Of a stretch of 35,875 bases of DNA, positions 11,876 through 35,183 are shown piece by piece. The notes beneath the pieces are model-generated. The model was given only the letters and a program-made list of their open reading frames with translations, ran no database searches and had not been told where the DNA came from. Made by a program: the position numbers and the translations under genes. Within the stretch, counting starts at the first letter, position 1; every line of letters starts with the position of its first letter. Source of the stretch: Octopus sinensis (lineage: Eukaryota); assembly GCF_006345805.1 (NCBI RefSeq), contig NW_021826235.1, positions 1 through 35,875 on the forward strand. Reading direction: 5' to 3'.

Positions 11876-12050
11876 CTATTGATGGTACACCATCAGTCGT
11901 ATACAACACTATAATGATGATGAGAATATTTCCATTTTTAAGTAGCTTTTGAAGAGTTTGTTTTCGTTTGTACCAATTTTCTCATACAAGTCATCAATAA
12001 AGCTCTTTGCTTCAAGCAGTATACTAAATCCATTCCCTCTTTCATTTTTG

Positions 12051-12125
12051 CTCTCTTTTACTTGTTTCAGTCATTTGACTGCGGCCATGCCGGAGTACCG
12101 CCTTTAGTCGAGCAAATTGATCCCA
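12051..12125 (-). mobile_element. SINE family A 3' fragment
   Basis: TTTTACTTGTTTCAGTCATTTGACTGCGGCCATGC as in the other copies. Confidence 0.85.
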
Positions 12126-12956
12126 GGAATTTGAACACAGAACATAGCGGCAGACGAAATACCTATTTCTTTACTACCCACAAGGGGCTAAACATAGAGA
12201 GGACAAACAAGGACAGACAAACGGATTAAGTCGATTACATCAACCCCAGTGCGTAACTGGTACTTAATTTATCGACCCCGAAAGGATGAAAGGCAAAGTC
12301 GACCTCGGCGGAATTTGAACACAGAACGTAGCGGCAGACGAAATACCTATTTCTTTACTACCCACGAGGGGCTAAACACAGAGAGGACAAACAAGGACAG
12401 ACAGACAAACGGATTAAGTCGATTACATAAACCCCAGTGCGTAACTGGTACTTAATTTATCGACCCCGAAAGGATGAAAGGCAAAGTCGACCTCGGCGGA
12501 ATGTGAACTCAGAACTTAGCGGCAGACGAAATACCTATTTCTTTACTACCCACGAGGGGCTAAACACAGAGAGGACAAACAAGGACAGACAAACGGATTA
12601 AGTCGATTACATCAACCCCAGTGCGTAACTGGTACTTAATTTATCGACCCCGAAAGGATGAAAGGCAAAGTCGACCTCGGCGGAATTTGAACACAGAACG
12701 TAGCGGCAGACGAAATACCTATTTCTTTACTACCCACGAGGGGCTAAACACAGAGAGGACAAACAAGGACAGACAGACAAACGGATTAAGTCGATTACAT
12801 AAACCCCAGTGCGTAACTGGTACTTAATTTATCGACCCCGAAAGGATGAAAGGCAAAGTCGACCTCGGCGGAATTTGAACTTGGAACGTAACGGCAGACG
12901 AAATACGGCTACGCATTTCGCCCAGCGTGCTAACGTTTCTGCCAGCTCGCCGCCTT
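12126..12956 (-). mobile_element. Head-to-tail array of SINE family B: one full copy, three 5'-truncated units and one partial
   Basis: Unit 3' ends at 12164, 12348, 12536 and 12720 (184/188/184 bp). The tRNA-like head AAGGCGGCGAGCTGGCAGAAACGTTAG is present only in the rightmost copy. Box B GTTCAAATTCC; central GCCTTTCATCCTTTCGGGGTCGATAAATTAAGTACCAG domain. Confidence 0.93.
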
Positions 12957-13239
12957 TAGGCAGCCAACTGGAATTGGAGGGTTAGATGAAACGGTGGTTC
13001 GGGTTTAGGTGAGGGTCGTTCGCAGGTTAGGGTTATGCAATCTGTTTGGTGAAGACGTGTTGTTATAAGGATTAACTTGTATCAGTATGGGTAAGATATA
13101 GGATTATGTACAAGAACAACGGTAGAATTACACATTCCAATCATGGTTCGGTTCATTTAAATATGCTTCGTGTCAGCGTGACACACATACACACGCACAC
13201 ACGTTCACACGCGCGCACACATCTATGTGTGTATACGTA

Positions 13240-13270
<31 letters not shown>

Positions 13271-13726
13271 AGATATAGATATAGATATAGATATAGATAC
13301 ATATATATATTATATATATATATATATAAGGAATGAATGTTTTTATATATAATGAACGTGAAATACAGGAAGGGACGAACACGGAACACAGACAAATCAT
13401 TCGAAGCCTTCAATCTTCAGTCAGACACCGAATCATCATAGCAAATTTCGGCTGTTCAAATCTGATATTTGCTCCAACTCGGCCAGCCCCAAGAAAAAAA
13501 ACTAAGCTGTAAGCATTAGATTTCTTGGTAGAGACAGGAATGTGAACGCACAAGACGGATGTGAATACAAGAGACGAAAACGAAATTGAAAACAGTAATG
13601 AATAAACAAAATATATATAACGGTGGTTGTCATACGACTTTAGACCAAATGAGACAAAAAACAACAACAACAACATAGCTGGCGTAGAAATAATTACCGT
13701 TTCGGTAGCGGGGACACATGTTGGTC

Positions 13727-15429
13727 TATTTCTTTATTACCCACTAGGGGCCACGAAGAGGGAACATTACAAACATGGGGGACATAAAACAATGCGATTA
13801 AAATTATGATTAATGAATGTTAAAATGAAAATGATAACATGAAAGCGATGCTAACGGCCCCCTCCGCCAGCATCACTTACCTTTCCGTTTCCTATCACGA
13901 TTCCAAAGTTTTCACCTCACCTTTCATTTCTCTCTCATATCTCTCTATCATATCATCCTTCATAAATGCTGAAAACAATTTATACGTAGTTCATTGCACT
14001 GCTCATCAAAGAGCCCATGAGTTCAAAATCGAATACCGCATAGCTTCCGTCCTCATACTCCTGCCATACATCGTCTTCAAAAAGCCTTCTTGCGTTCTCA
14101 GTATCCCTTCCCCACAACACATAAAAGTGACTGGGGCTTTTGTATGTTCTGTGTGTCTGTTTTCGTTTTTTCTTGTAGGCGGGGAGGGGTGGGATTGCTG
14201 TTTGCGGGGGCAGGATGGGTCTCCAAGGGTGTGGGTGGTATTGGGGTGGGTTGGGGCTTCGCACAGTTTTCCTTTTCTTTCCTTTTCTCTTCTTTCTGCC
14301 CTCCTCACACTCTTTTTGCATCTCCTCCTCCTCTGTCATTTCCCTTTCCGTCTGCTTCTCTGTAATTTCTTCTTCTTTTGGGGCCTCCTCTTTTGGAGTT
14401 TCCTCAACGATTTCCTTTTCTCTTGGTGGGGGAGGGCAGAAGGCTCTTATGTGGCCCCTCAGGCCACACTTGTAACAACGTGGAGCTCTGCCCTCCACCC
14501 ACACTCTCATAATCACGTCTCCCAATTTAATGCTCTCCGCCAGGTCCACCAGTACCTCGCTCTCCGCCTGCACGTTTAGCTCCACTATTACGCCTCTCCA
14601 GCCCTCGGTCTTGACCGAGGCATGGAGAATATCTACTTTCTCCTCGTGCCGCTGATCACAGCCGCCACAATCCACTCAGCCTCCACGTTTGGTGGCACGC
14701 CCTCCACCCTTACTCGTGTGATCCTTCTATTCAAGTACATAGGTAAAAGTGTTACCCTTTCTGACTTCACTGCCTTCACCGCCATCCTCCTCGCTGCAGT
14801 CTCACTTTTAAAATGCACCCTACAGTACCGTACTTCGATCCTCGAGTCAGGAAAATGATTCCTCCTCCGATCTTCTCAGGGCCTCCTCATCCATCCATGT
14901 TAACGATCTCTATTTTCTTTCTTTCGTTCACGAACACCCTGTAAATTATGGTCCTCTTATTGTACCATTCCTTTCTCTTTGGTGGTGGTTCCAGTTCCAC
15001 CTCGCCGCTGTCCTTCCTCATATACCTCTGGAAACCTGGCAATTTTCTAGGTTTATTCTTTTTCCTGTTCCCGTTCTTCTTTTTGCAACTCCTGCGTACG
15101 TTTTCCTGTTTTTTTTTCTCCACATTATTTACATCACCGATTTGCTCGTCTTCAGAGTTCGATGTCTCCGACAAGCTCTCAAATATCCATTCTTCCTCCG
15201 ACTCCTCCACTAGGGAAGTGGTCATCCATCTCCTCCCGCCTGACAGGCCAAAAACGGCCGTCAAAACAGAAAAAGTGTAACGCGCAGAACCAGTGGAACG
15301 CGAAACCGCTTAAACGCCGTTCAAAATTTCCACAACAACAACAACAATTCTTTTTGATCTTTTTTACCGAATTTTACGAGCGTAAAAAAACACGACCGAA
15401 CTCAAAACTGACGAACAGACAACTGATCC
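13727..15429 (-). mobile_element. ORF1-only non-autonomous non-LTR retroelement (HAL1-like 'half-LINE')
   Basis: Perfect 19-bp TSD GCGGGGACACATGTTGGTC (13708-13726 and 15430-15448). 5' end GGATCAGTT (Inr-like); single Gag-like frame; ~250-nt 3'UTR ending GCCCCTAGTGGGTAATAAAGAAATA; no room for RT. Confidence 0.85.
13980..15225 (-). pseudogene. Gag/LINE ORF1-like nucleic-acid-binding protein (RRM-like region plus CCHC zinc knuckle), frameshifted as assembled
   Basis: Joins track ORFs 14887-15264, 14633-14818 and 13980-14675: RTIIYRVF...IIFLTRGSKYGTV.VHFKSETAARR...TRVRVEGVPPNV...RVWVEGRAPRCYKCGLRGHIRAFC (CX2CX4HX4C at 14436-14477), followed by an acidic/basic tail. Stop at 14887; 1-nt shifts near 14820 and 14645. 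Confidence 0.85.
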
Positions 15430-15828
15430 GCGGGGACACATGTTGGTCGAGATACGAAGGCCAACAGAATGGTTTAAGAAGCAGCAGGTCGCAGGAGAGA
15501 GAGAAAGAGAGACAGAGAGAGAGGAAATCAAAGAGGGTGGAAGGCAGGGGACAGAATCAGTGACCAAGAGAAAAGGAGAAAGAAGGGATTAAGGAGGATG
15601 GGAGGAAGAGGGGAGGAGGATGGGAGGAAGAGAGGGGAAGAATCGGAGGGCGCCAAAAAGTTTGGTGAAGAAGCAATGGCGGGTAGGAAAGGACGTTTTT
15701 ATAGAAGTCGTGCAGGGGGTTTAAAATTGGACAAACAAACGGGGGGGGGGGGTGCACGTAACGCCGCAATAATATAAGAATGAATGTTTTTATATATAAT
15801 GAACGTGAAATACAGGAAGGGACGAACA

Positions 15829-15934
15829 TATATGTATGTATGTATGTATGTATGTATAAATCTATATATACGTATACGCACACATATATATATATATATA
15901 TACAGCTATATACATATACATACATATATATATA

Positions 15935-15979
<45 letters not shown>

Positions 15980-16182
15980 ATGTATATATATGCACACGTG
16001 CATGTCTGTGTATACATATATGAACGTATGTATGTATGAATGTATGTAGAGAGAGAGAGAGGTGGAAGTTATGCATGAGTCGAACACATCATCATCGTCG
16101 TCATCATCAAATCTAGTTAATGAAAGCATTGGTTCAATGAAAGAGCGATAATGGAGTTGACAGCTGTCGCTTTCTAGCTAAC

Positions 16183-22619: not shown

Positions 22620-23003
22620 GGAGGCGCAATGGCCCAGTGGTTAGGGCAGCGGACACGCGGTCATAGGATCGCGGTTTCGAATCCCCAGACCGGGCGTTGT
22701 GAGTGTTTATTGAGCGAAAACACCTAAAGCTCCACGAGGCTCCGGCAGAGGATGGTGGTGATCCCTGCTGTACTCTTTCACCACAACTTTCTCTCACTCT
22801 TACTTCCTGTTTCTGTTGTACCTGTATTTCAAAGGGCCGGCCTTGTCACTCTCTGTGTCACGCTGAATATCTCCGAGAACTACGTTAAGGGTACACGTGT
22901 CTGTGGAGTGCTCAGCCACTTACACGTTAATTTCACGAGCAGGCTGTTCCGTTGATTCGGATCAACCGGAACCCTCGTCGTCGTAACCGACGGAGTGCTT
23001 CCA
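22620..23003 (+). mobile_element. SINE family C, full length (tRNA-Arg-like head)
   Basis: Box A TGGCCCAGTGG, box B GTTTCGAATCC; near-identical to 23472-23852. Confidence 0.92.
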
Positions 23004-23019
23004 TCCATCCAGTGTCTTG

Positions 23020-23370
23020 TATTATCAATCGAGCTTTGGTGTTGGAGAAGACCTTTACGGATTCCATGGACAGAGAAACTCACCAATGGAGAAGTTCTTA
23101 ACCGGATCAAGCCGAATCTGTGGCTGGAAGCTAGAATTACCAAGCATAGATTGGCATATTTTGGTCATATTATGCGGAGAAAATCCCTGGAGAAGGACAT
23201 CATGCTCGGAATGGTCAGTGGCAAGAGAGGAAGAGGCCGACCAAGAACCCGCTGGCTTCACACCATTAAGAGTGATTACGTTAAATACCATAGCCAATCT
23301 GAAAGAAGCGACCCAGGATTGAACTGGCTGGGGAACACTGATCCATCGAGTAACCGATGAGCGAATAAAA
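23020..23370 (+). mobile_element. RTE-clade LINE RT C-terminal fragment
   Basis: ELWCWRRPLRIPWTEKLTNGEVL...RLAYFGHIMRRKSLEKDIMLGMVSGKRGRGRPRTRW, the characteristic RTE/BovB C-terminal motif. Confidence 0.92.
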
Positions 23371-24933: not shown

Positions 24934-25270
24934 AAAGGCGACGAGTCGGTAGAATCGTGTCCGCCGAGGTCGACTTTGCCTTTCATCCTTTCGGGGTCGA
25001 TTAAATAAGTACCAGTTACGCACTGGAGTCGATATAATCGACTTAATCCGTTTGTCTGTCCGTGTTTGTCCCCCTCTGTGTGTAGCCCCTTGTGGGCAGT
25101 AAGGAAATAAGAATCGTGAGCACGCTGAACAAAATGCTTAGCAGCATTTCTTCCAGCTCTTTACGTTCCGAGTTCCGAGTTCAAATCCCACCAAGGCCAA
25201 CTTCACTTTTCAATCCTTTTGCGTATCGATAGACAAAATACCAATCAAGTCAAGCAATACAGTCAATTTA
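24934..25270 (+). mobile_element. SINE family B copy joined to an older B-like copy
   Basis: Family B body ending GGGCAGTAAGGAAATA at ~25109, flanked by duplicated AGAATCGTG (24951 and 25110). Confidence 0.8.
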
Positions 25271-28513: not shown

Positions 28514-29350
28514 TGGGGGCGCGTGGCTTAGTGGTTAGGGTGTCAGCATCATGATCGTAAGATTGTGGTTTGGATTCCTGGACCGGGTGACGCGTTGTGT
28601 TCTTGAGCAAAACACTTCATTTCACGTTGCTCCAGTCCACTCGGCTGGCAAAAATGAGTAACGCTGCGATGGACTGGCGTCCCGTCCAGCTGAGGAACAC
28701 ATACGCCATAGAAACCGGGAAACCGGGCCCATGAAGCTGGTTATTTGACACAACTGTTGTGTCAAATAAGGCTGAATGTTGGCAGAATTGCTTCTGCGAC
28801 GGCAAAAAACAAAAAGCTTGGCAATATCTATTCCAGTTATAAAGCGGCGAGCTGACAGAAACGTTAGCATGCCGAGCTTGCTAAGCGGTATTTCGTCTGT
28901 CGCTACGTTCTGAGTTCAAATTCCGCCGAGGTCGACTTTGCCTTTCATCCTTTCGGGGTCGATAAATTAAGTACCAGTTACGCACTGGGGTCGATGCAAT
29001 CGACTTAATACCTATGTCTGTCCTTGTTTGTCCCCTCTGTGTTTAGCCCCTTGTGGGTAATAAACGTTAGCATGCCGAGCTTGCTAAGCGGTATTTCGTC
29101 TGCCGCTACGTTCTGAGTTCAAATTCCGCCGAGGTCGACTTTGCCTTTCATCCTTTCGGGGTCGATAAATTAAGTACCAGTTACGCACTGGGGTCGATGC
29201 AAGTACCAGTCGATAAATTAAGTACCAGTTACGCACTGGGGGTCGATGCAATCGACTTAATACCTATGTCTGTCCTTGTTTGTCCCCTCTGTGTTTAGCC
29301 CCTTGTGGGTAATAAACGTTAGCATAAAAGGGTGCATTTATTTATTTATT
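28514..29350 (+). mobile_element. SINE family D (tRNA head, CORE/V-like body) with 14-bp TSD, interrupted at 28741-29325
   Basis: TSD TAATAGCACATCTG (28500-28513 and 29351-29364); head GGGGGCGCGTGGCTTAGTGG; GCGATGGACTGGCGTCCCGTCCAG segment; (TTTA)n tail. Confidence 0.85.
28841..29325 (+). mobile_element. Tandem SINE family B array with internal micro-duplication
   Basis: Units restart at AAACGTTAGCAT (29062 and 29314); duplicated GTCGATAAATTAAGTACCAGTTACGCACTGGGG at 29161 and 29209. Confidence 0.88.
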
Positions 29351-30114: not shown

Positions 30115-30752
30115 TTTTTCCTTTACTGCCCGCAAGGGACTACACACAAAGGGGACAAACAAGGACAGACAAAGGGATTTAGTCGATTATATCGACCCCA
30201 GTGCGTAACTGGTACTTAATTTATCGACCCCGAAAGGATGAAAGGCAAAGTCGACCTCGGCGGAATGTGAACTCAGAACGTAACGGCAGACGAAATACCT
30301 ATTTCTTTACTGCCCACAATGGGCTAAACACAGAGAGGACAAACAAGGACAGACAGACGGATTAAGTCGATTACATCGACCCCAGTGTGTAACTGGTACT
30401 TAATTTATCCACCCCGAAAGGATGAAAGGCAAAGTCGACCTTGGCGGAATTTGAACTCAGAATGTAGCGGCAGAGGAAATACAGCTAAGCATTTCCCCCC
30501 ATCGTTCTAACGTTTCTTATTTCTTTATTGTCCACAAGTGGCTAAACATAGAGGGGACAAACAAGGACAGACAAAGGGATTTAGTCGATTATATCGACCC
30601 CAGTGCGTAACTGGTACTTAATTTATCGACCCCGAAAAGATGAAAGGTAAAGTCGACCTCGGCGGAATTTGAGCTCAGAACGTAACGGCAGACGAAATAG
30701 TGCTAAGCATTTCCCCACCGGCGTGCTAACGGTTCTGCCAGCTCGCCGCCTT
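30115..30752 (-). mobile_element. Head-to-tail SINE family B array (three units)
   Basis: Unit 3' ends at ~30115, 30300 and 30518; full head at 30725-30752. Confidence 0.92.
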
Positions 30753-30884: not shown

Positions 30885-32691
30885 GGTATGTTGTTTTCGT
30901 TGTTATTCTTGTTGTCATTGCTGCTGTTGCTGCTGCTGCTGGTGTTGTTTGTTATTGTTGTTGTTGTTGTTTTTTTTTGGTTGTTGTTATTGTTGTTGCA
31001 GTTGCTTTTCTCTTCAAGCCTGCTTTAACAAACAGAGGTGGTGGCGGCGGTGGTGGTGGTAGTGGTCGTGAAGATGATCGTAGCAATGGTAACGGTGGTA
31101 GTGGTGGTGGTGGTGGTAGTGGTGGTGGTGGTGGTGGTGGTGGTGGTGGTGGCGGCGGTGGTGGTGGTGATGGTGGAGGAGCGGTAGTAATGGTGGCGGT
31201 GGTGGTGGTGGTGATGGTGGAGGTGGTGGTGGTGGTGGTGGTGGTGGAGCGGTAGTAATGGTGGTGGTGATGGTGGTGGCGGTGGTGGCAGTGGTGGTGA
31301 AGATGATCGTAGCAATGGTAACGGTGGTGGTGGTGGTGTTAATGGTGGCGGCGGTGATGGTGGTGGTGGTGGTGGCGGTGGTAGTGGTGGTGGTGATGGT
31401 AACTGCGGTGATGGTGGTGGTGGCGGCGGCGCAGTTAATAATTGCGACTGTTATGATGGTTGTAATCACCGCAGTCGTGTTGGCAATGCTCTGTGGCAAC
31501 GACCGTTTCAGCGGTAATGGTGAGATTGTCGTGGTTGAAGTAGTGGTGGTGGTGGTGGCCATGGTCATGGTGGGGGATGACGGTTGCAATGGCAGTGACG
31601 GTGGTATGGGGGATGAAGGTTTTGAATACACATTGCAATACGAATACACATTGACCTTCGTAGCGGTGGCGGATGTTGATTTGATGACCATTGAAGTGGT
31701 GGTGGTGTTGGTAATGGTATGTGCGGGGTGGAGGGTGAAGGGAAACCGTGATGATTGTGGTGACAGTGGTGGTAATGGTGGCGGTAGCGGTGGTGGTGGT
31801 GGTGGTGGTGGCGGTAGGGGTGGTGGTGTTGGTGGTCGTGGTGGTCGTGGTGGTCGTGGTGGTAATGGTGGCGGTAGCAGTGGTGGTGGTGGTGGTGGTG
31901 GTGGTAATGGTGGCGGTAGCGGTGGTGGTGGTGGTGGTGGTGGTGGTGGTGGTGTGGTGGTGGCGGTAGCGGTGGTGTGGTGGTGGTGGTGGTGGTGGTG
32001 GTGGTGGTGGTGGTGGTGGTGGTAGCGGTGGTGGTGGTGGTGGTGGTGGTGGTAATGGTGACGGTAGCGGTGGTAGTGGTGGTGGTGGTGGTGGTGTTGG
32101 TAATGGTGGGTGGAGGGTGAAGGGAAACCGTGATGATTGTGGTGACAGTGGTGGTATGGTGACTGTAGCGGTGGTGGTGGTGGTGGTTCGAAATTGACCA
32201 TCATAATGATGGCAGAGCTGGTGGTGGTGACCGTTGTAGTAGCGAGGGTGATAGAGAAGGAATCATTGTCGAAGTGGTGGTGGTGGTGGTTTAATCCCTT
32301 TGTCTGTCCTTGTTTGTCCCCTCTATGTTTAACCCCTTGTGGGTAATAAAGAAATAGGTATTCGTGTTGGTGTGGGAAGTGAAGATGATCATGGTGTTGG
32401 TGGTGGTGGTGGTGGTGGTGGTGTTACTGTTGTTGTTTTCGTTGTTGTTGTTGTTGTTGTTGTTACTCTTGGTGGTGGTGTTGGTGATGGTGGTGGTGAT
32501 AGTAATGATAGTAGTAGTAGTAGTAATGATTATGTTGGCAATAGTGATCGTGGTGGAGATGATGATGATGATGATGATAAGGAAGATGGCTGAAGATTGC
32601 CCTTCGAAGTCGTGGTGGAGCTGAGCCGGTGATAAAGGCCGTTATTAGCTGTAGTGGCGACGGCGGCGCAGAAAGAGTGATCACAGTAGTT

Positions 32692-34281: not shown

Positions 34282-34322
34282 ACACAATGTTTCGGCTATA
34301 CCCTCCAGCCTTCATCAGGTGT
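34282..34322 (-). ncRNA. Minimal type I hammerhead motif (stem III mutated)
   Basis: ACAC-CTGATGA-A-GGCT...AGCC-GAA-ACAT-T-GTGT, within the inverted repeat arm 34233-34337. Confidence 0.75.
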
Positions 34323-34417
34323 CTTGGGGAAATTTCGAACCTGGGTTCTCCTTCCTAAGGTATGACCTGGACAATAATAATAATAATAATAATAATGATA
34401 ATAATAATAATAACAAT

Positions 34418-34606: not shown

Positions 34607-34607
<1 letters not shown>

Positions 34608-34706
34608 TTCTGGTTTATTGGCCACAAGGGCTAACATAAATTACGAAAAACAAGTAAGGACAAATACATGATGAAAAGTACAAAGGGTTTTGTCCGAAAG
34701 AAAGGT
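34607..34706 (-). mobile_element. Probable LINE 3'-UTR fragment
   Basis: Minus strand ends TTAGCCCTTGTGGCCAATAAACCAGAA, similar to the SINE B and ORF1-only element tail. Confidence 0.55.
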
Positions 34707-34722
34707 CCGAAATTTCCCCAAC

Positions 34723-34766
34723 ACACCTGATGAAGGCTGGAGGGTATATCAGCCGAAATGTTGTGT
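34723..34766 (+). ncRNA. Minimal type I hammerhead motif (stem III mutated)
   Basis: ACAC-CTGATGA-A-GGCTG-loop-CAGCC-GAA-ATGT-T-GTGT, within the inverted repeat arm 34708-34815. Confidence 0.78.
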
Positions 34767-35183
34767 TAACAACAAACAAGATGAGGACAAATATCTGTCA
34801 AATGTAAATAATGTACAAAATTCCTCGTCTCTTAAATATAGAACTGAATTAATGAATAATTTATAAGTATTTTAAAATAGGGAATCACTTTTCTGTCACT
34901 CTGTATATCGACCGGATAAAGAGAAATGGGAACAAGGTTTTTTGTTTTTATATCTGCGTTTGTCTAGCAAAGGACATGGAGGATATCAGCATCTGTGTTT
35001 CTCTACTTGCATTGTTCCACGTTTCATTTCGATCTTCCAAAATAGATAAATAAATAGATAAATAAATAAGCCGATAAACAAATTACGCATTCTTCCATAA
35101 ATAGCCAAAGATATTACGTGTCTGCATACTTGTTCCACGTCCTCGCGTTGTTGTGTTTTCTCTTTGTGTTTTCATGTTTGGAT

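Follow-up and report, generated by a model that had tools for sequence, protein, structure and literature searches.

Tail-matched LINEs as likely reverse-transcriptase lenders for an ORF1-only retroelement and an abundant SINE in Octopus sinensis

In the genome of Octopus sinensis, an ORF1-only retroelement, a very numerous SINE and intact autonomous LINEs end in closely similar 3' tails, and we propose, with a probability of about three in four, that they make up a guild held together by tail recognition. The lenders of reverse transcriptase (RT) in this guild would be two LINE groups, G and H, the borrowers would be a long-lived protein-coding element and a mass SINE (SINE B), and a sister LINE family, T, would use a separate channel. 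The proposal grew out of contig NW_021826235.1, analysed over its 35,875 nucleotides (hereafter the window). The features of the window on which the argument rests are the following:

13727..15429 (-), full-length 1703-bp ORF1-only retroelement (a half-LINE), named HAL-A here, with 43 of 64 genome matches near full span
15430..15448 (-), 5' copy of its 19-bp target-site duplication
13708..13726 (-), 3' copy of the same duplication
13851..15229 (-), ORF1 with two predicted RRM-like domains and one CCHC knuckle, frameshifted as assembled
13727..13751 (-), 25-nt tail at the 3' end of HAL-A, common to the three tiers, with no poly(A) after it
13739..13751 (-), predicted hairpin with a 4-bp stem (GCCC/GGGT) and a 5-nt loop, the stem kept and the loop variable
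12126..12955 (-), SINE B head-to-tail array with tails at 12164, 12348, 12536 and 12720
25085..25109 (+), SINE B tail
30300..30542 (-), second array, two SINE B tails (30300-30324 and 30518-30542)
32332..32356 (+), tail of a 5'-truncated SINE B
34607..34709 (-), 5'-truncated 3' end of LINE family T with a GCC/GGC stem, followed by a (TTA)n run

The terminal 25 nt of the ORF1-only element (13727-13751, minus strand) read GCCCCTAGTGGGTAATAAAGAAATA. When this pattern was allowed up to three mismatches, it was found at nine sites in the window as against none in 100 shuffles, and the other eight of the nine belong to ends of SINE B, those at 12164, 12348, 12536, 12720 and 32332 differing from the element by two mismatches. 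The initial annotation of the window, which had noted a nearly identical 25-nt end on the element and SINE B, was thus borne out on this point, and the end that it quoted for a LINE-like fragment at 34607-34706 also reads as given, with 34614-34631 (-) being GCCCTTGTGGCCAATAAA. Its "weaker similarity over ~70 nt" between element and SINE B did not survive, as the score of the segment from -75 to -26 was reached by 49-132 of 300 shuffles for three SINE copies. The element showed no significant likeness to the 34607 fragment in the terminal 100 nt (43 of 300 shuffles scored as high), and for SINE B against the same fragment no shuffle out of 300 did. We could rule out that the tail is a remnant of an adjacent SINE, because the 19-bp target duplication bounds element and tail together and the tail recurs in other copies.

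HAL-A is a multi-copy family, the 43 matches in genome G000 covering nearly the whole 1.7 kb (92-100%). Among 30 copies, the 3' end carries the exact 25-mer in 25, a variant in four and, after an internal deletion, the last bases only in one, while ORF1 is open as a single frame of 460-463 aa in nine. Compared with an intact copy, the one in the window shows 11 substitutions and 25 indel events, mostly in base runs; since contigs from other sequencing runs carry the family letters at several of these positions, its ORF1 frameshift may stem from decay or from assembly error. We then searched the genome with the HAL-A ORF1 protein (best 150 matches, down to 63% identity) and compiled 47 distinct ORF1 cores from 25 of the protein-search loci and from longer regions. 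These half-LINE cores form a clade (support 95/95) apart from the ORF1s of autonomous LINEs, with 32-39% identity over ~230 aa to the ORF1s of G, H and T. The tail follows the core in 44 of the 47 members, at a distance of 656-720 nt in 43, so that the concern that other copies of the element might lack it could be put aside; an ORF2 follows in 0 of 47. HAL-A thus encodes an ORF1p without an ORF2p, its ORF1 is homologous to those of autonomous LINEs, and it qualifies as an ORF1-present non-autonomous LINE. The family spreads by retrotransposition, as judged by target duplications, 5' truncation and a fixed 3' end; two 5'-truncated copies have their own target duplications of 14-15 bp. Two more ORF1-only lineages sit on long branches elsewhere in the ORF1 tree, making at least three in all.

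The half-LINE ORF1 is under purifying selection, with dN/dS of 0.11-0.16 (pairs with dS >0.2; 162 codons). Since synonymous sites are saturated in 76 of 351 pairs, selection has maintained ORF1p over a long span of time without ORF2, and the simplest reading, by analogy with known elements, would be that it is needed in cis. Its core is predicted to fold into two RRM-like domains and a CCHC knuckle (pLDDT 89). Pfam recognised zf-CCHC in 40 of 44 half-LINE members and no L1 ORF1 family in these 44, a PDB profile search returned knuckles only, and a structure search with the model gave only RRM-like or ACT-like folds (best Z 8.2), a likeness of fold that implies no function. In a protein database search with the half-LINE ORF1p, 0 of 6,937 candidates scored, which we regard as neutral evidence.

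Several observations on the half-LINEs stand beside this argument. The further ORF1-only lineages (loci L224, L227, L228, L217 and L211) measure ~1.7-1.8 kb and have ORF1s 33-35% identical to that of the window; of the two, one has a G-type end and the other a window-type end. Template switching or gene conversion is suggested by some half-LINE copies (L022, L023, L015 and L021; L085 and L229), which resemble haplotype mosaics, and by deep subfamilies whose 3' UTRs are similar to those of young subfamilies. The word CATGTG lies within ~50 nt of the cut, at varying distances, in several target repeats (L013, L019, L021, L026, L027, L028, L025 and window 13708-13726), and the first 20-30 nt of HAL-A look like a relic of an earlier target.

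Autonomous elements with the same tail were found by a pattern search for LINE-type tails with the window's end, which gave 48 genome places; in 24 of the 30 such loci that were read, the C-terminus of an ORF2 lies 150-350 nt upstream. RT-encoding elements therefore do carry the tail, and the three tiers that the annotation had postulated, autonomous LINE, protein-coding half-LINE and SINE, are indeed joined by a common 3' end. The ORF2 of group G, first met directly behind a half-LINE, has 1132 aa with endonuclease, RT and zinc domains, and one copy of group H has an open ORF2 of 1128 aa; in both groups ORF2 is intact, with endonuclease and YADD motifs present. Pfam matched the partner ORF2s to RVT_1, Exo_endo_phos and zf-RVT, the closest solved structure was L1 ORF2p (E 2e-68, against 2e-24 for R2), and the nearest named relative came from Argonauta, in keeping with an octopod as host. 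G and H share 73% ORF2 identity and each is 57-59% identical to T, so instead of the single RT that had been envisaged for all tiers, there are several tail-matched probable lenders. By sequence comparison, G, H and T are assigned to the L1 group of non-LTR retrotransposons, and they are likely members of the Tx1 clade. A Tx1-like preference for repeats as targets is seen in G ((A/C)TGGAGGA) and T (ATT repeats), and the database relatives and cluster names of the partner ORF2s included no Tx1 label or named Tx1 reference. L1-Tx1 families are reported to have been recently active in Octopus vulgaris (PMC13282606).

The tails of these LINEs match that of the window to different degrees. G variants carry it letter for letter and group H has one change in the loop, with scores against the window tail of 72 for the G variant, 65 for H and 19-20 for T. 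Most G copies differ from the window tail in the last 7 nt; the 30 best have the same hairpin and end mostly in TAATAAAAC or TAATAAAATC. When the half-LINE 3' UTR was compared with those of H and the G variant, identity was 0.93 over the last 30 columns and 0.47-0.73 farther upstream, and despite the near-identical tails the half-LINE ORF1 protein is merely 35-39% identical to the G and H ORF1s. Target duplications of 13-20 bp occur in all three tiers. As the tail finder demanded a stem-like match, only its tallies of ends and targets were used: (A/C)TGGAGGA, inside an ORF1-like repeat, follows 17 of 27 tallied G tails, and group H showed no single site among 17 tails and target duplications of 16-17 bp in three of seven copies. 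G thus inserts at one site within the ORF1-like sequence of another repeat (L151-L180), a LINE targeting the ORF1 of a relative. We also observed five G-related ORF2 ends spaced 3.6-5.2 kb apart at G000:C9:76607584-76624045, probably a tandem array.

The proposed lenders and the half-LINE are also found together. Among the best 150 matches per search, a half-LINE cluster was present within 20 kb, always on the same strand, for 11 of 131 clusters of G and 4 of 42 clusters of H; uniform placement, a crude null, would give 0.22 and 0.07. Family T served as an empirical control, and among the matches listed none of its 139 clusters lies within 20 kb of a half-LINE and none is near G.

Family T is the family of the LINE-like fragment that the annotation had put forward as partner. 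It has intact ORF2s of 1145 aa, and its copies end in GCCCTTGTGGCCAATAAA plus a few bases and (ATT)n, the last seen in nearly all of 50 copies shown. The T tail is homologous to that of the window, reading GCC-CTTGT-GGC and then AATAAA, with a C-G stem pair flipped to G-C. A homologous tail, the significant match of SINE B to the T fragment and the youth of T with its intact ORF2s would all suit a scheme in which one RT, from the family of 34607-34706, serves all three tiers, but we consider this scheme very improbable: the (ATT)n ends are absent from half-LINE and SINE B tails, the tail scores favour G and H by a wide measure, and T clusters keep away from half-LINEs and from G among the matches listed. 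T was accordingly rejected as the half-LINE partner, and the family of the window fragment is probably not the lender. T copies form head-to-tail arrays of their own, with 5-6-kb units joined by short ATT runs (G000:C27:17907500-17926000, C14:19950500-19968000, C5:65681000-65698000 and C4:72575000-72594000). In the window, an inverted pair of Penelope-like ends (34290-34341 and 34700-34815) flanks the TAA run and the T fragment.

The hairpin of the tail has the form GCCC-CTWGT-GGGT. The small stem-loop that had been suggested for the tail core is present as a 4-bp stem with a 5-nt loop, but shuffled sequences fold equally well (z -1.0 and -1.1), and hairpin z-scores of about -1 or worse indicate no stability beyond that of shuffled sequence. 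Conservation in the half-LINE clade is 0.95-0.97 in the stem columns, 0.83 in the loop and 0.67-0.82 upstream, with at least seven loop variants on a retained stem. For 31 chosen tails, 96.8% of the cells pair and 60 of 500 shuffles match the pairing and covariation scores; the flipped pair of family T is the one compensatory event, and RNAalifold placed the stem in a shifted register with no compensatory pair. We regard a hairpin structure of the tail as plausible. Upstream of the tail, too, the half-LINE UTR shows fair conservation, and comparison of subfamilies gives it a mosaic look, so that recent tail swapping could mimic selection on the tail.

These data bear on the alternative that the tail is kept for 3'-end formation or polyadenylation, or has merely been spread by template switching, with a relaxed RT and a hairpin that has no role. 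AATAAA is nearly invariant in the protein-coding elements, folding energy is ordinary, covariation is weak and the 3' UTRs look mosaic, all as this alternative would have it. However, inserted copies stop 6-9 nt past AATAAA and have no poly(A), and SINE B keeps the tail mostly with AGTAAA (in place of AATAAA in 23 of the first 30 SINE B tails listed); as a Pol III-type SINE needs no poly(A) signal, the tail would be kept for more than polyadenylation. The seven or more loop variants on a retained stem speak against it as well, and so does the peak of identity over the final 30 nt between lineages with ORF1s as distant as 35-39% identity. We therefore judge this alternative improbable.

SINE B is very abundant: exact 31-nt tail matches in the genome number 58,201 for SINE B versus 45 for the young half-LINE subfamily. 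Its array at 12126..12955 consists of one full unit and then units that start ~49 nt into the head, and 13 of 30 copies run into another SINE head near position 49; target duplications of 13-20 bp were found in six of the 30. SINE B ends at 29047-29070 and 29299-29322 (+) stop after AATAAA and continue into a SINE head, a further type of junction. As in a tRNA-derived SINE, the head has by eye A-box-like and B-box-like words, of which a pattern check matched the first only. ARAGORN found nothing, and Rfam over window 12000-16000 gave only repeat-driven matches below gathering scores. SINE B may resemble MetaSINE or the named octopus SINEs (OK, OR1, OR2).

Like the T fragment, the G and H tails match that of SINE B more closely than any of 300 shuffles, and the SINE B/G match, in contrast to the SINE B/H match, extends into the segment from -75 to -26 (0 of 300 shuffles). 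Among 100 listed of 225 matches to the exact 60-nt end of SINE B, we found SINE-type ends and no LINE. The median distance from the majority sequence was 6.7% for SINE B (30 bodies, none of them below 3.4%), 1.2% for the half-LINE (30), 1.0% for H (8) and 0.4% for G and T, in samples that are unlike one another, the SINEs having been chosen by position and the half-LINE, H, G and T copies as best matches. This shows only that most SINE B copies predate the youngest lenders. Given the 6.7% of the sampled copies versus 0.4-1.2%, the main lender of SINE B may be an older family, and this greater age of the SINE B sample lends no support to the competition between tiers that the annotation had proposed. 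Its suggestion that the half-LINE ORF1p might help or interfere with the SINE is likewise unsupported, a need in cis being the simplest account of the selection on ORF1.

One could go further and hold that an older clade member, by now silent, drove SINE B, that today only the half-LINE uses G and H and that the tiers never competed. The absence of young bodies from the SINE B sample and of a LINE with its exact longer end from the 100 listed matches would agree with this version, which we regard as possible but tentative, with the odds somewhat against it. Subfamily structure inflates the divergence of SINE B, 30 of 58,201 copies were sampled, and the half-LINE lineage reaches synonymous saturation and would thus have overlapped the SINE burst in time. 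Moreover, such a history invokes the same tail mechanism as the guild of G and H with their borrowers and differs from it in timing only.

Whether the window copy itself arrived by means of its tail is a separate question, for which its surroundings are informative:

13331..15827 (-), host repeat of ~700 bp holding the element, flanks 13331-13726 and 15430-15827

The host repeat has a 50-nt direct repeat at 13331-13380 and 15778-15827, and by its anatomy it may be Penelope-like. It is often tandem, ends at TA runs and is preceded by a copy of its own 3' part, truncated to varying extents (window 13331-15827; L231-L255), an arrangement like that of Penelope-like elements. In the genome, 382 exact sites are empty, and there are 16 exact filled 5' junctions and 19 exact filled 3' junctions. 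That the element was copied as a passenger inside the 700-bp repeat is a serious contender to which we would give slightly less than even odds. In its favour, the 5' junction is identical in 16 copies and the 3' junction in 19, those examined are full length, and in three filled hosts a cut lies 113-214 nt upstream of it. On the other hand, the filled hosts fall into two host haplotypes that both also occur empty, element haplotypes do not track host haplotypes, tandem elements at one site are unlike each other, and 382 empty sites make a large target. As host and element haplotypes are unlinked, repeated targeting is favoured. Elsewhere in the window, 22956-23360 (+) holds an open stretch of 134 aa that by eye resembles the ORF2 C-terminus of an RTE-type LINE and has no Pfam match.

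Half-LINEs, G and H also join in head-to-tail trains on the same strand. Half-LINE tails adjoin the G site ATGGAGGAAA in 3 of 57 cases, one of them without any G copy. The same base of the SINE B head is abutted by half-LINE (2 of 57), LINE (1 of 55) and SINE (3 of 80) tails, the half-LINE and LINE cases coming from a single locus (L225). The junctions within trains contain duplications together with short remnants of other sites, a pattern compatible with insertions made repeatedly near the 5' end; as some junctions recur on three chromosomes, whole trains may also have been copied as units. Mixed trains of up to eight units, in which several half-LINE subfamilies stand beside full LINEs of G or H and further ORF1-only lineages, were observed at G000:C5:19136000-19155400, C3:1176000-1195400, C10182:28000-47400 and C1:76262000-76281400, and three of them begin within a host sequence common to all three, upstream of the G site. 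A tandem of at least nine half-LINE copies (~1.75 kb each) occupies G000:C6:70541000-70568000 (L147-L149), with 487-aa frames open in several.

We propose the following mechanism for the guild. The half-LINE would be an ORF1-only derivative of the L1/Tx1-group LINE clade, and the common tail would likely act as a handle by which the ORF2 proteins of G or H recognise the RNA and start target-primed reverse transcription in trans. The half-LINE ORF1p would coat its own RNA in cis, ORF2p would be borrowed from G or H, and priming would occur at a fixed point just past the hairpin and AATAAA, so that no poly(A) is copied. SINE B would take the same route without a protein of its own, and T would recognise its own variant of the tail and insert at ATT repeats, hence its separate channel. 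Trains would likely lengthen each time a new copy inserts at, or close to, the 5' duplication of one already resident.

A more elaborate version seems unlikely to us. It treats the tail as a sorting code within one LINE clade, in which the flipped pair and the last bases choose between G/H and T, and the independently evolving half-LINE ORF1p as a targeting adaptor that steers the borrowed ORF2p to resident 5' ends and SINE heads, producing mixed trains with upstream promoters and junction tags. The adaptor would have a role like that of HeT-A Gag, but away from telomeres. If this were true, it would amount to an animal L1-group system in which stringent recognition serves three tiers together.

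Each part of the guild has precedent. HeT-A forms head-to-tail arrays and carries 5' tags. The half-LINE is similar in being a long-lived ORF1-only lineage whose arrays are mixed with RT-bearing relatives and whose 5' ends hold relics of earlier junctions. HeT-A, with TART/TAHRE, and Ag-Sponge are named in PMC5786205, and ORF1-only LINEs are known from the Jockey, L1 and CR1 clades (PMC5786205, PMC5753468). HeT-A and Ag-Sponge belong to the Jockey and CR1 clades, whereas the octopus arrays are chromosome-internal, with no host function indicated. HAL1 (half-L1), a mammalian ORF1-only non-autonomous element of the L1 group (PMC5753468, PMC5786205), resembles the half-LINE in having only ORF1p, in its L1-group origin and in having arisen more than once. 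However, in the half-LINE ORF1p a CCHC knuckle accompanies two predicted RRM-like domains, and the element ends in a hairpin tail without poly(A), the signal that mammalian L1 recognises (PMC3747384), and has preferred sites and mixed trains. We rejected HAL1 proper as its identity, given that Pfam found no mammalian L1-type ORF1 family and that the partner's relative is from Argonauta.

The closest working model is TRE5-A.2 of Dictyostelium, an ORF1-only element moved in trans by the ORF2p of its partner TRE5-A.1, with an ORF1 needed in cis, an essential 3' hairpin and targeted insertion (PMC3159450); mobilisation of the half-LINE in trans would follow this pattern, as its shared tail, sites and trains indirectly suggest. 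TRE5-A.2 is a deletion derivative of its partner, whereas the half-LINE ORF1, so distant from those of the lenders, has a long history of its own; the octopus tail is also found on a mass SINE, and targeting of tRNA genes is not a feature shown here. In crocodilians, SINEU was paired with Tx1-Mar on the strength of their common targets; SINEU has a poly(A) end and, in the portion of the paper accessible to us, no LINE matched the 3' half of SINEU-1 (PMC4494074). Like the octopus elements, they insert into transposons, with tandem insertions around the target duplication and 5' additions, but that portion describes no ORF1-only tier (PMC4494074). Stringent L1-clade pairs with a common tail are named for maize, sorghum and Chlamydomonas, such as ZmSINE2/3 with LINE1-1_ZM and SINEX-3_CR with L1-1_CR (PMC3747384). 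These pairs also share a 3' end with a hairpin; the octopus tail is from an animal, its stem is much smaller and its covariation is weak. As far as the available text of the octopus repeat papers goes, they give L1-Tx1 and many unclassified SINEs without a link between their tails (PMC13282606, PMC8967140, PMC4758252, PMC4824008). A literature search outside Repbase, Dfam and most subscription journals found no published description of the three-tier combination.

Whether L1-clade LINEs began with stringent tail recognition that mammals later lost is a question raised in PMC3747384, for which this animal clade of the L1/Tx1 group offers a ready test set, with young intact lenders (G and H), a near-miss control (T) and two kinds of borrower. 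Our analysis adds an ORF1-only lineage, selected up to synonymous saturation, from a clade outside the Jockey, L1 and CR1 clades named in the accessible part of PMC5786205, and it proposes likely drivers for a SINE that ranks among the most abundant in this genome.
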